This document shows, piece after piece, positions 22,637 to 58,442 of a DNA stretch of 64,000 nt. Source of the stretch: Eledone cirrhosa. Its lineage: Eukaryota. The notes beneath the pieces are model-generated. The model was not told the origin of the DNA. It saw only the letters and a program-made list of their open reading frames with translations, and did no database searches. A program made the translations under genes and the position numbers. The DNA is taken from assembly GCA_964016885.1 (NCBI GenBank), contig OZ024743.1, positions 65,038,001-65,102,000 of the forward strand. Reading direction: 5' to 3'. The first letter of the stretch is position 1; each line of letters opens with the position of its first letter.

Positions 22637-22695
22637 ACTGTTATATATATTTCGGTGATAACCGTTATGCAACAGTTATGACCTCATCAGTCAGC
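22637..22695 (-). ncRNA. Hammerhead ribozyme motif (family 2)
   Basis: Reverse complement: GCTGa-CTGATGA-GGTcATAACTGTT-gcat-AACGGTTATcACC-GAA-ATATATAT-A|aCAGT; AATAAA follows. Confidence 0.75.
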
Positions 22696-23612
22696 TAGAA
22701 GTTGAACAGAAAAAACAGAGAAACATACAGAAGAAATAAAGCTTACTTTTGTTGTTTTGATTCATTGATATACCCCGGGCTGATATTTGGTGTTGCTCTC
22801 TCAAAGCACCGGTGACATATATATCCATGTATTATTAAAGGATGTGTAGCAAGCTACTTTCCTTTGGCGCATTGATACTCCGTTCATGCGTGCTTTGGCT
22901 AAGTCAGGCCAATCGTCATCCGCGCACGGATATGTATTTTCAACTTCCGCCCAAACCGAGACTTTCCCACTTCTTTTAACAAACTAATCCTCTTTGCACG
23001 TCAACGCTGGTAAGGTAAACACCAGTTCTTATTTTGCTCCGTATACATTGACCAATATGTAACCAACAAAATAACCACTAGACCGTGCCTTCTCTTGCAA
23101 TCTTAATTTGTTTGGCATGCCACCTCTACTCACTTCAACCTCTGTTAATAAATCATATAAAAACATTGTAAAGTCTTGTGATGCTATTTACCACAGCCAT
23201 ACCTTTAAATATGATATGGAAAGATTCTTTCCATAGTTATATTCACAGCAGCCAATAGCACCTGAGACTTACAGCCGAAACCTCAATTCAACTTACATTT
23301 ATTGATATAACAAACCATACCTTACCAATTACATAACAAATACATTGTTGTTACATATTGGTGAACGCTATTGATACATACATAATACAAACAATACTAA
23401 ATATTATCATTCTCGTTAATATAATTTTGAATACTTCTAAAGATGTGTAAATAGGTACTCAATACCAATGTTGAGTTTAAATATTCACCAGATAGCCATT
23501 AATTGAATATTTAAACTCGACTTTGTATAAAATCTATTTTTATAATATTCTTAATAAACATAAAATAATAGATAGGTATGAAAAATTAAAGACAATTTTT
23601 ATATCTTCTCAC

Positions 23613-23766
23613 CTTTAATATCTGAATATGGATGGCTAATACTAAACGAATTTTTGTGCACTTGCATCCAGGCGAGGCGTTCCCCCATCAAATAAAGTGA
23701 ACCGTCCATCTTCTTGTGGCGAACATGGTTTACGATCAACAGAACCTCTTCTGATGTCTTTGCCAT
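23613..23766 (-). CDS. GTF2H1: TFIIH p62 coding exon 1 (PH domain start)
   Basis: [33 protein letters not shown]...YSDIK resembles human [33 protein letters not shown]; acceptor ttttgctttcag-like tract ending at 23789, donor gtgag; 154 nt. Confidence 0.95.
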
Positions 23767-24146
23767 CCCGCCTACTCTTGATTGTCATCTGAAAGCAGAA
23801 GAAAAAAATAAGAAATATTTGTTGTAAGATACATGGCAATTTATTTTTGACAATACAAGGAAATTCTGAAGGCAAAAGAACAAATGTTTGAGGCTAATTT
23901 TAGCAATTTAAAAGACTATGATCTTTTTCAACACATTGATGTGTATGTGTGTATATGCATACATTTATATGTCTGAATATATAAATATAAACGCGCAAAC
24001 ACAGACAAACTTACAAAAATACACTTACAGACATACATTAACACAAATACACATACATTTACACAAACACAGCATAGGAAATGGAATGCCAGCTGCTGTT
24101 TTGCTATAGTTTTTTTCACCATCCCCTTCCTTCTTTTTACACATAC

Positions 24147-24792
24147 ATAAGTGAGAAATTAGGAACAAGAGGGATCAGATGCTGTTTACTCAAGAGAAGA
24201 TTACGTTGGTATGGTCACGTGATGTGCATGAAAGATGACAGCTGCATAAAAATGTGCAGGGCGATCAAAATTGATGGAAGTTACAGAGTAGGCAGACCCA
24301 GAAAAACCTGGGACGATTTGATAAATTCCGACCTTACACACACCTCTCTAAGACAATGTCACTAGACCGAGATCTTTGGCGGCACGCAGTAATACAGAAG
24401 ACCCGCCTTGCCTATGTACGAAGCGAAACCTACAGTCAATAGGCACCTCTTAACCAAATATACACCCCACCCTCCCACTCTCACCAACACCACCCTTTCT
24501 CTGTAAAGTTATGTTGGTACAACATCCAGTCCAAAATAAATGAGGTCGTGTAGGTGTCGCAACAAAAAAAAACACAGTCCACGCTGTAATGTGGCTGTGT
24601 AGGTAACACGATAATAACCTCCCAGTCCACACTGTAAACGTGGTTGGTGTTAGGAAAGGCATCCAGCTGTAGAAAACCTGCCAGACAGTCCTATATGAAC
24701 GAGACACGGTCACCAATCTTGCCTCAAGTGGGACAATTCCCGTCTAAACCCATGCTAGCATGGAAGAAAGACGTTAAATGATGATGATGATG
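24147..24792 (+). mobile_element. RTE LINE 3' end, same family as 55437-56065
   Basis: RRLRWYGHV...GRPRKTW, near-identical 3' UTR, (GAT)n tail. Confidence 0.85.
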
Positions 24793-54849: not shown

Positions 54850-56065
54850 TATAACTTGTCTAAGACTAAAGTTCTAGTTTGTAGAAAGGAAAATAGGGCA
54901 CAGGTGCCCTCAGGAAAATGGCCACGCTCAGTGTGTAGGAAAGGAGTAGGTACAAATTCCATTTTATGTGCCAAATGCAAAGTATGGGTACATAAAAGAT
55001 GTAGTGGGATCACAGGTAAACTACCTAAGAACGTAGACTTTATATGTGGCCAATGCTCAGGTGCAATAAGTAGCAAGTGTCCAAAGGATACTAGCTCCTT
55101 CCATTGCCCAGATGGTTCTATAGAAATAGTAGACACTTTCCGTTACCTGGGTGATGAAATCAGCAGTGGTGGAGGGTGTTCTGAAAGTACAGTAGCCAGA
55201 GTCAGAACAGGATGGAAAAAGTTCAGAGAGCTTATACCGCTGTTGGCCACAAAAGGTTTCTCTCTAAAAATGAAAGGCAGATTGTATGATGCCTGTATAC
55301 GAACAGCAATGCTACATGGCAGTGAGACATGGGCATTACGTGCAGAGGACCTGCGTAGACTGGAAAGGAACGAAGCATGCATACTCCGTTGGATGTGTAA
55401 TAGTAATATACGTGAACGGCAAAGCAAAATGAACTAAGTGAGAAATTAGGAATAAGAGGGATCAGTTGCTGTTTGCTTGAGAGAAGACTACGTTGGTATG
55501 GTCACGTGATGCGCATGAAAGACGACAGCTGCATAAAAAAGTGCAGGGCGATCAAAATTGATGGTAGTTACGGAGTAGGTAGACCCAGAAAAACCTGGGA
55601 TGATCTGATAAATTCCGACCTCACACACATCTCTCTAAGACAATGTCTCTGGACTGAGACCTTTGGCGCTACGCAGTAATACAGAAGACCCGCCTTGCCT
55701 ATGTACAAAGCGAAACCTATAGTCAGTAGGCACCTCTTAACCAAATATACACCCCAATCTACTACCCCTACCCTATCCTCCCACCAACAGCACGAGAAAA
55801 TGAGATTGAGTTTGTGTAGGTGTCACAACAAAAAACACACACATTCCACGCTGTAATGTGGCCGTGTAGGTAACATGGTAAAAAGTTCCCAGTTCCACAC
55901 TGTAAATGTGGTTGGTGTTAGGAAGGACATCCAGCCGTAGAAAACCTCCCAGTTAGTTCTATATGAGCGAGACACGGTCACCCGACCAGCCTTGCCTCAA
56001 GTGGGACAACTCCCATCTAACCCATGCTAGCGTCGATAACGGACGTTAAACGAAGATCATCATGA
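54850..56065 (+). mobile_element. RTE-clade LINE 3' fragment with 3' UTR
   Basis: ORF 54829-55437 and 55473-55679 (FRYLGD, MLHGSETW, RRLRWYGHV); 3' UTR shared with 24147-24792 and with SINE tails. Confidence 0.9.
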
Positions 56066-56704
56066 TATACATACTATAAGGATAAGGAACAAAGATTCAG
56101 TGTTGCATCATAACATATTACATATGTTTTTCTATCGATCAGTTCGATACAATATATATGTATATATATTTACAACTATATATATATAAACGGAAAAAAT
56201 GAAACGAAATTTAATTTCTCACTCTTAGTACGGCTGTTACTTAAATATAAGTATGTATACGTACATACATATTTGTTGCTAGACACTGTACGGCTTAATT
56301 CGGGATGTTTGTTTACAAACACCGAGCATTATAATAAATGTTCGGTAAACAGGAATAACAACACAATCGGTACAGTATATGGAAGAGATATATTAGGTTA
56401 ACGCTTGATATAGCAGGAAGGTCCATTTTCCATGCTATAATATAATTATTCAGGTCAATTACTACAATGGTGCCATACCAAGTATGTATGTTTTGTCATC
56501 AATGATCAACGAAACGTACTTACCTGGTATGAGACCGTTGTAGTAGCTGACCTGAGTTGCTCTGCACCTTGGATTTTTACTAACCTGTTACTACAATACT
56601 ATTATATATATATAATATTGTTTCTACTTATATATATATGTTCATCACACATGTCCTTCTCAAGTATGTTCCAGCCATCAATGTCTTGTGGTGTCTATTT
56701 CTAG

Positions 56705-56827
56705 ATATGTGGTGTTTCTATTTTGCGTGCTGGTGAGACTATGGAATCTGCTCTTGGAGAAGTCTGCAAAGATGTTGTGATTGGAAAGATTTTAATACAG
56801 ACCAACTTTGACACAGGAGAACCAGAA
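56705..56827 (+). CDS. UCKL1: UCKL1 exon 11
   Basis: [17 protein letters not shown]...[16 protein letters not shown]. Confidence 0.96.
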
Positions 56828-58385
56828 GTATGTATTACTGGAACTGTTCTTCTTTATAGTCAACATTATTGGCAGTATCGGTAGAGGGTCGGACGCCATG
56901 CTTTCCAGCATAGTTACGTCCCTTTACGATCTGAGTTCAAATCCTGCCGAGGTTGACTTTGCCTTTCATCCTTACGGGGTCGATAAAATAAAGTACCAGT
57001 AATGCACTGGGTAATTGCTGGCCTTGTGCCTAAAGTAGAAACAATTATTTAGTTTATTAATTTGTTTCAAGTATTTCAAAATAATTGTTATTTTGTTCCC
57101 TTCAATTCTTTGCATGATTTAAACTATTCACATTTTTGATATGTGTGTATTTGTGTTTCTCCTCTCTTTTATATATATATATATATATATAAAAATTATC
57201 AAAGACCCCCTTTGGTCACAAATGACCATGTGATTTGCACCTAGAAAGGCACAAGTCTACAAGTCTGGGCAAGGTTATTTGGGGAAGACCAGCAGTCGCC
57301 CATGCGTACCAGCCTCCTCTCTCCACACCACCGATGATGTCCCAGGGAAAGGCATCAGTGACTTTGCAACTCATTTCTACAGCTGAGTAAATTGGTGCAA
57401 CGTGAAATAAAGTGTCTTGCTCAATGCATCCCTGGTCCAAGAATCGAACTCACACCCTTTCTATTGCAAGCTCTAACCATTAAGCCATGTGCCTTAACAT
57501 ATGTATTATATATATATAGTAGGCATCTCTAACAAAATACACCCCGTCCCGCCACCACCCCCACCCCATCCACACCACCCCGTTCTATGTAAAGTTATGT
57601 TGGTGCCGCGCCATCCAGGCCGAAACAAATGAGATCGTGTAGGTGTCACGACAAAAAAACACACAGTCCACGCTGTAATGTGGCCGTGTAGGCAACACGG
57701 TAAAAACCTCCCAGACCCACACTGTAAATGTGGTTGGTGTTAGGAAGGGCATCCAACTGTAGAAAACCTGCCAGACAGTCCTATGCGAGCAAGACAATCA
57801 CTCTTGCCTCAAGTGGGACTACCCCCGTCCAAACCCATGCAAGCGTGGAACACGGACGTTAAACATTGATGATGATGATGATGATATATAATGGCTTAAT
57901 ATGGAGGCACATGGCTTAGTGGTTAGAGCATTGGCCTTGCAATCGAAAGGTTGTGAGTTCAATTCTCAGACTGGGTGATGTGTTGTTTCTTTGAGCAAGA
58001 CACTTTATTTCACATTGCTCTAGTTTACTCAACTGTAGAAATGAGATGATAGGGACTGCAAAGTGGTCGTGGAGGTGCCATGGCAAAAAAGCACCCAGCC
58101 CACACTATAAAGTGGATGTGTAGGCGCCACGGTAAAAAGCACCCAGCACTCACTGTAAATGAGGTTGGTGTTAGGAAGGGCATCCAGCTGTAGAAATCAA
58201 GCCAGAATCAGTTCCTGTCCCACCCTTGCAAGCAGGGAAAAGCGAACGTAAAATGATGATGATAAATATATAAAAATTACCAGGATTAAATTACATTAAA
58301 TTATTTATCTATATATGTATATATATTCTTTAATATGGCTAAGTGGTGAGTCTTGTTTCTCTGGAATTTCATGTGGGTATTCACA

Positions 58386-58442
58386 GAGTTCTTGTCTGAT
58401 GACCCTGTGATAAACAGGCGAAACTCCAGAGTAACAAGACTC
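58386..58442 (+). ncRNA. Minimal type-I hammerhead ribozyme (family 1, most intact copy)
   Basis: TCTTGT-CTGATGA-c-CCTGT-gataa-ACAGG-c-GAAA-CTC-ca-GAG-TA|ACAAGA; stems I-III all pair; predicted cleavage after 58433. Confidence 0.8.

Follow-up and report, generated by a model that had tools for sequence, protein, structure and literature searches.

The window studied here, 64,000 nucleotides of the Eledone cirrhosa genome (assembly GCA_964016885.1, contig OZ024743.1, positions 65,038,001 to 65,102,000), contains nine dispersed hammerhead ribozyme-like motifs. These motifs are very probably the hammerhead-bearing 3' ends of four families of Penelope-like elements (PLEs), one of which has a protein-coding parent. 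They were likely inserted at AT-rich positions within introns through target-primed reverse transcription and have likely been subject to neutral decay since. The copies in the window are likely inert insertion debris and not regulators of their host genes.

The original prediction listed nine minimal type-I hammerheads. A hammerhead-like motif is present at every listed coordinate and on the listed strand, and the nine sort by sequence into four families (A, 26337, 27021, 51417, and 58386; B, 22637 of B1 and 32428 of B2; C, 52255 and 54800; D, 47712), in line with the three to four unrelated families that had been anticipated. The core attributed to all of them, with boxes CUGANGA and GAAA, is kept in five of the nine and absent from 32428, 47712, 51417, and 54800 (Table 1), and one site is intact. 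That site, 58386, is the only one on the list to pass our descriptor, which asks for both core boxes or the U3-A8 variant of the core, at least four pairs in each of stems I and II, and a near-palindromic stem III; the remaining eight fail it. The four copies singled out as best preserved and all sense to the host gene do not form such a group, because the core of 32428 is mutated and 27021, which is antisense, keeps both boxes. Stem III is a perfect palindrome in the B1 and B2 window copies.

Over window positions 1 to 60390, the descriptor gave three matches, at 58396, 44117(+), and, weakly, 38243(-), against a mean of 0.07 and a maximum of 1 in 60 local dinucleotide shuffles. The density of hammerheads in the window is far above chance, as had been expected. 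The match at 44117 represents a fifth family that was missing from the list of nine and has 19 further matches in the retrieved loci, some of them one place counted twice. A scan of the window with Rfam covariance models returned 46 matches at E ≤ 1, none of them a hammerhead. When single window motifs were folded alone, none had a z score below -2.2, and the stem I pair probabilities in local context were ≤0.01 in all eight window copies tested. The 58387 copy, which is site 58386, and its inverted arm at 58316-58389 are predicted to form a hairpin of -68.2 kcal/mol (z = -9.4, 0 of 200 shuffles). A (TA)n tract lies within 15 nt of the 3' end in seven of the nine window copies, a count for which no background rate was computed. 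A repeat of ~130 nt without a hammerhead adjoins three of the hammerhead copies (window 26177-26301, 26892-27020, and 47550-47660).

TABLE 1 Hammerhead-related features and host genes, in window positions
Feature	Position	Strand	Remarks
Family B1 copy	22591..22819	-	~230-nt 3' end of Hydra-like PLE, then (TA)n; p62 intron, sense
B1 hammerhead	22695-22637, C3 at 22690	-	both boxes and palindromic stem III intact; stem I closed by A-A mismatch
Family A solo copy (26337)	26296..26387, C3 26384	-	both boxes intact; stem I 3 bp; stem III palindrome broken; sense to p62
Family A solo copy	27021..27101, C3 27023	+	flanked by two (TA)n tracts; both boxes intact; stem I 2 bp; likely antisense to p62
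Family B2 copy (32428)	32315..32523, C3 32433	+	core CUGAAGG (A9 to G); stem I closing pair C-A; first intron of uridine-kinase gene, sense
Fifth hammerhead family	44111..44155	+	core U3...A8 here; C3...G8 in nearly all other copies seen
Family D copy (47712)	47664..47881, C3 47791	-	3' end of non-coding partial-tandem unit; long branched stem II; core CUGAGGC (A9 to C); antisense
Family A copy (51417)	51401..51464	-	core CUGCUGA plus AAAA (A6 to C, G12 to A); ends in (TA)n; antisense
Family C1 copy (52255)	52158..52290, C3 52261	+	3'-truncated right after core; both boxes kept, but stem I, stem II, and stem III palindrome broken; sense
Family C remnant (54800)	54766..54835, C3 54806	+	second box AAAA, not GAAA; no predicted fold; then (TA)n; sense
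Family C 3' fragment without hammerhead	56345..56419	-	antisense
Inverted 5'-truncated family A arm	58316..58389	-	no CUGAUGA box; head to head with 58387 copy
Family A copy with tail	58387..58508, C3 58396	+	passes descriptor; predicted cleavage after 58433; sense
TFIIH p62 coding exons (host gene 1)	8405..23766	-	first coding exon 23766-23602
Uridine-kinase + UPRTase gene (host gene 2)	32173..60198	+	start exon from sequence; kinase and UPRTase exons by Pfam

DNA searches of the 3.0-Gb assembly retrieved at least 1900 and at least 1369 candidates for family A (two queries), at least 1418 for B, at least 799 for C, and at least 504 for D; these are first-look candidates, of which 40 per search were scored, and they are lower bounds. 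The proposal that the genome hosts several unrelated ribozyme-bearing families of PLE type is borne out by these high copy numbers. Each of families A to D ends in a minimal type-I hammerhead beside (TA)n, and (TA)n junctions are common across the retrieved loci. Among the top-scoring copies, both core boxes are kept in 44 of 57 for A, 20 of 29 for B, 22 of 25 for C, and 19 of 24 for D, and the average divergence from the family majority is 11 to 18%, some flanking columns included. CpG sites within the A motif mostly read TG or CA (36 of 57 and at least 49 of 57 copies). Inverted 5' arms were found in 18 of 30 A loci retrieved with a single-arm query, 6 of 30 B, 1 of 25 C, and 6 of 25 D loci. 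Different hammerhead families were also seen stacked within one (TA)n tract, such as C immediately after B, or B plus A plus an open reading frame (ORF) of Neptune type (loci L056, L040, L283, L241, and L343).

The short palindromic stem III typical of PLE hammerheads was recovered. It is a perfect palindrome in 33 of the 52 motifs from the gene survey described below; in family A, just 2 of 57 copies, those having CG as the loop, form the palindrome, and the loop is CA in 49. Predicted energies of the stem III duplex are -17.3 kcal/mol for A with the CG loop, -7.2 for 58386, -6.6 for 26337, and -3.2 for B. The G10.1-C11.1 pair is GC in 43 and GU in 10 of 61 B motifs and occurs also in C; its place is taken by a C-C mismatch in A and a U-G pair in D.

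Judged by its sequence, family B is the 3' end of a decayed PLE that encoded a reverse transcriptase (RT) and a GIY-YIG endonuclease and carries Hydra-clade motifs. A query placed 220 to 450 nt further upstream found 88 candidates versus 1418 at the 3' end, a gradient of 5' truncation, and four long copies extend upstream into a GIY-YIG remnant. When the B-linked endonuclease DNA was used for searching, 13 of 30 loci had a same-strand B hammerhead downstream (11 of 27 without the three query sources), and one further locus carried just the upstream part of B. An alignment of loci L291 and L292 spans 3.29 kb at 76%, running from the RT region as far as the B hammerhead, and one of this pair is flanked at the 5' side by an inverted B copy. 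In translation, the elements have a C-terminal endonuclease, a CxCX5C linker, and, near the C terminus, CxxC and CxH, and they lack CCHH (L242-L245, L262, L263, L281, L288, and L291-L293); DKT lies upstream of the RT motifs in L293, and RWK was not found in the three broken B copies scanned. The description of the elements as non-coding applies to A, to D, and probably to C1, but not to B. A seemingly GIY-YIG-like stretch immediately upstream of the B hammerhead was discarded, since the end of the true endonuclease lies >1 kb further upstream. The 3' untranslated part of many B copies also holds tRNA-like short interspersed elements (SINEs), zero to two per copy, at one (ATT)n site (L243-L245, L252, L254, and L260). 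They were considered as an internal promoter and rejected as such; their number and presence vary by copy, so they look like independent insertions, for which (ATT)n would be a hotspot.

The alignment of 61 B-type motifs, which omits 8 of 69 pattern matches (six with odd lengths or deletions and two from other families), has 94% of its cells paired. Double-change cells across the B subfamilies numbered 45, compared to 15.0 ± 4.4 after shuffling (0 of 500), although these changes separate subfamilies and so count a few events, and related rows inflate the figure. Among the A copies, covariation was no higher than in shuffles, 356 to 364 of 500 of which were equally high. Covariation among genome-wide copies, which the original prediction had looked for, is thus present between B subfamilies and absent among A copies. 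This pattern points to stem structure being selected in master elements, with copies that may decay neutrally.

Family A is an element of ~140 nt that starts inside stem I. In 57 distinct copies, the shared sequence stops within ~12 nt upstream of C3 at points spread over stem I: conservation is 50 of 57 at -1, 39 at -6, and 30 at -9 and reaches background by about -12. Across the three stems, 90% of the cells are paired in these copies. A tail of ~60 nt was found in 40 inverted pairs on the right arm only in 24, on the left arm only in 9, on neither in 7, and on both in 0 (Fisher P = 4e-5), so a one-arm tail characterizes 33 of the 40 pairs, a rule counted for A only. A palindromic A query gave an inverted arm in 30 of 30 loci, but this query selects for them. 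No head-to-tail junction of A was found in the genome with an exact pattern allowing a gap of ≤25 nt, a search that had no positive control and could miss mismatched junctions. A Neptune-type ORF beside one A pair (L241) was tried as the parent of A and rejected, as the A hammerhead occurs in 0 of 30 related loci; the ORF is likely a co-insertion into the (TA)n tract. The one-arm tail and the 5' ends inside stem I make family A a large natural data set on inverted PLE insertions and on the purpose of the hammerhead.

Family D is a non-coding unit of 0.6 to 0.9 kb, a PLE partial tandem without an ORF. An upstream D query found 294 candidates versus 504, and the D hammerhead lay downstream in 23 of 30 of the upstream-query loci. 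In 4 of 31 loci, the upstream end of the unit runs into the tail of a preceding D copy (lengths of 875, 832, 703, and 595 nt), and the longest open frame in seven aligned units is 79 to 141 codons. The antisense strand of the unit has a conserved, strong splice-donor-like site (L374, L377, and L397). The 5' start of C1 copies is fairly constant, ~110 nt ahead of the core, and a Neptune-type endonuclease remnant precedes one C2 copy. Some C copies seemed to share homologous sequence upstream, but this was traced to B elements whose 3' ends lie in the (TA)n tract that received C and was set aside.

GIY-YIG remnants are abundant in the genome (10,596 candidates, 150 scored), and some have frames of 500 to 1100 codons with their own hammerheads downstream of the ORF. 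Trans-acting proteins were thus available. The A to D hammerheads were absent at the 3' ends of 20 + 20 young PLE loci picked by long open frames. Other PLEs were observed along the way. A young Neptune-type family with frames of up to 938 codons has a hammerhead with the U3-A8 core variant and a 6-nt palindromic stem III (L131 1000-2009, minus strand, L132, L136, L140, and L150; G000:C1:145870300-145877500), and four intact copies of it occur in the intron survey. A Hydra-type frame of 374 codons (L260 3488-5800) is followed ~1 kb downstream by one of the commonest intact survey hammerheads, often found in inverted pairs. In another Hydra-type element (L135 5307-6400), the hammerhead-like motif at the end has CAGAAGA as its first box in place of CUGANGA.

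Strand bias was assessed in spans between same-strand exons encoding low-density lipoprotein (LDL) receptor modules, which were assumed to have known gene orientation. In 567.5 kb of such spans, families A to D had 21 matches, 10 sense and 11 antisense, or about 1 per 27 kb, and the descriptor had 45 matches, 20 sense and 25 antisense, compared to 0, 0, 0, 0, 3, and 1 in six shuffles. With 90 kb added (657.5 kb), there were 52 intact motifs in 16 clusters, 23 sense versus 29 antisense (P = 0.49). Inverted pairs hold 24 of these 52; the other 28 divide into 11 sense and 17 antisense (P = 0.34). In the window, six of the nine listed sites share the orientation of their host gene (P = 0.51), or 7 versus 5 with the extra copies counted (P = 0.77). 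The suspected sense bias therefore did not hold up. Its absence argues that tens of thousands of sense intronic hammerheads are tolerated, which fits weak monomer activity.

The predicted density of one motif per 7 kb also proved too high, as it includes broken copies: intact motifs occur about once per 13 to 17 kb. Pooled, there were 55 intact motifs in 798 kb, or 1 per 14.5 kb, and the flanks of 111 search loci gave 12 in 200 kb, or 1 per 16.7 kb. Density is patchy, since 80 kb flanking the window contained no descriptor or A to D match. If the samples were representative, the genome would hold ~200,000 intact motifs, an extrapolation from two samples neither of which is random. Tandem retrozyme units of 150 to 400 bp, which had also been suggested, were found neither as hammerhead tandem repeats in the window, nor by the A junction pattern, nor in the survey, where no same-strand, same-family pair lay within 1 kb among the 52 intact motifs.

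We propose that a PLE protein would nick (TA)n DNA and start cDNA synthesis 60 to 130 nt downstream of the hammerhead on uncleaved RNA. With such a start, every insertion, however short, would carry the motif. Two primings from two start sites, each nicked strand using a different one, would yield head-to-head pairs with a tail on one arm. Families A, C, and D may borrow their protein from one of the Neptune-, Poseidon-, or Hydra-type elements of this genome. Pairing through a palindromic stem III would enable two tandem hammerheads in the master RNA to act as a cleaving dimer, and a lone, mutated, or hairpin-locked intronic copy is expected to cleave little or not at all. A more far-reaching version, which we offer tentatively and as a possibility, is that A insertions record the PLE mechanism in vivo, in a genome whose ~200,000 intact-looking minimal hammerheads from at least 16 PLE families would be among the highest loads known. 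The cDNA would then stop inside stem I of the uncleaved ribozyme, and head-to-head pairs would form when each of the two nicked strands primes at its own RT start site.

As a class, scattered PLE ends that are truncated and carry minimal hammerheads are already known from many animal genomes. Thousands of minimal motifs per animal genome, mostly single, probably truncated PLEs and some on opposite strands, were described by Cervera 2014 (PMC4209133), which also found minimal hammerheads to be inactive as monomers and weak as dimers. The families described here share with the metazoan PLE hammerheads (Cervera and De la Pena 2014, PMC4209133; Lunse 2017, via PMC6765202, which we take to be Weinberg 2019) the type-I order, short stem I, palindromic stem III, the extra base before stem II (family C), the U3-A8 core variant, and the many unrelated consensus families per genome, mostly as single copies with some opposite-strand pairs. 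They differ in the C-C of A and U-G of D where G10.1-C11.1 is usual, in the long, branched stem II of D, and in a sampled density that implies more than the ~2,000 to 9,000 motifs per genome of PMC4209133, which used different descriptors. The B parent has the order RT then GIY-YIG, the CxCX5C, CxxC, and CxH motifs, one DKT motif (L293), the lack of CCHH, the 3'-end hammerhead, and the (TA)n targets of the Hydra clade of C-terminal endonuclease-containing (EN+) PLEs as outlined in PMC8557442. It is ~3.4 kb long with a 3' untranslated part of >1 kb, compared to <3 kb for the described clade, and all copies seen are decayed, the assignment being made by motifs.

The architecture of the insertions also matches what is known of PLEs. 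An inverted copy and a one-sided tail were reported for PLE insertions by Craig 2021 (PMC8557442), which in the part used here mentions Octopus only for Naiads. Frangieh 2024 (PMC11167929) tied the tail to two RT start sites, with both DNA strands extended and uncleaved RNA as the main template. All features of the canonical unit in these two papers, namely, 5' truncation, an adjacent inverted copy, a partial tandem, and a one-sided tail, are seen here; the A tail, however, is ~60 nt and not 30 to 40 nt, and A copies are unusually short, starting at most ~12 nt upstream of the core. We found no account in the literature of octopus or cephalopod hammerhead families or of a cephalopod Hydra-type element; Repbase, Dfam, and the supplements of Craig 2021 and Cervera 2014 may list them. 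The hammerhead families thus appear to be undescribed in octopus, and what is new is the host and the detail, together with the high sampled density.

Several observations weigh against decaying PLE ends. No coding parent was found for A, C1, or D, a same-strand endonuclease remnant lay close upstream in just 1 of 61 C copies (L183), and a weak one lay ~0.9 kb upstream in 1 of 30 D loci. The PLE status of A, C1, and D therefore rests on insertion architecture and motif type. The descriptor is still satisfied by a substantial share of the top-scoring copies in the genome (19 of 60 A, 11 of 30 B, 4 of 25 C, and 14 of 25 D), which tempers the view of the copies as inert. The A core columns vary less than other columns (8 of 570 versus 70 of 1881, P = 0.004), a result confounded by the anchoring of the rows on the core; B1 core and other columns differ from the majority about equally (13 of 510 versus 57 of 1683, P = 0.39).

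Alternatively, A, C, and D could be true non-LTR (long terminal repeat) retrozymes, whose dimeric hammerheads cut tandem units into monomer RNA circles, with the dispersed copies as offspring. Non-LTR retrozymes (Cervera and De la Pena 2020, PMC7229834; Li et al. 2026, bioRxiv 10.64898/2026.07.22.740005) are likewise non-coding, PLE-related, and equipped with type-I hammerheads, and Li 2026 derives animal retrozymes from the pseudo-long terminal repeats (pLTRs) of PLEs and reports many monomers. D agrees in having no long open frame (79 to 141 amino acids in the seven units) and occasional two-unit same-strand repeats of 595 to 875 nt, both core boxes being recognizable in L377 and L104, and A agrees in having no sequence upstream of stem I. 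The D repeats are partial, however, like PLE pLTRs; the motifs here are minimal and not canonical; and copies begin upstream of the core and not at the cleavage site. Multi-unit arrays of 150 to 450 bp were not found here, nor was the A head-to-tail junction within the limits of its pattern, a window tandem, or a close same-strand pair in the survey, and we regard this origin as unlikely. Even less credit is due to the idea that A is a DNA-type fold-back, a palindrome similar to miniature inverted-repeat transposable elements (MITEs) with an incidental hammerhead match, which is barely credible to us. Many A copies are indeed palindromes of 140 to 300 nt at TA-rich sites, and no RT parent was found, but 12 of 30 single-arm-query loci have no inverted arm, the junctions vary, and the arms differ by the one-sided tail. 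Moreover, each A arm begins with a complete, well-paired hammerhead, and B, which shares the layout, is linked to RT.

The remaining alternative is domestication: some intronic copies might now cut or tune the pre-mRNA of their host gene, in the manner of the conserved hammerheads in amniote introns. The six sense sites and the core and palindrome retained in 22637 lean that way. They are outweighed by the more even strand counts in the window with extra copies and in the surveyed genes, by the failure of eight of nine sites against the descriptor, by the very low stem I pair probabilities, and by the predicted locking of the one intact copy in a hairpin. With no sign of host-directed function in these data, domestication is highly improbable.

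The two housekeeping genes proposed as hosts were identified as TFIIH p62 and a gene for uridine kinase plus uracil phosphoribosyltransferase (UPRTase). The p62 exon tested is 97% identical to proteins of three Octopus species and ≤77% identical to those of other named species. The second gene, which we take to be UCKL1-like, likely runs on past the window end. The claimed intron placement is less direct for 26337 and 27021, which are located upstream of the first p62 coding exon; splice signals, with an acceptor at ~23790 and position 27614 as the candidate donor, would place them in an intron of the p62 5' untranslated region (UTR). Between the two divergent genes lies a CpG-rich zone (window 27200-33600), which includes the B2 copy at 32315-32523 and is likely an unmethylated bidirectional promoter region.

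Other repeats were noted in and around the genes. The p62 introns contain minisatellites of 50 bp by 18 units (8560-9511) and 31 bp by 12 units (18675-19040). After the last visible uridine-kinase exon, a homogeneous 52-bp satellite fills window positions 60396-63998 with ~70 units at 95% matches and extends at least 8 kb beyond the window (L256). This satellite was considered as a hammerhead array, as most units contain CTGATGA on the minus strand, and was rejected because they have no GAAA box. Just past the 58387 copy, at 58543-59550, begins a transposase-like frame of 251 codons that has no Pfam match and is presumably mariner-like by its motifs.

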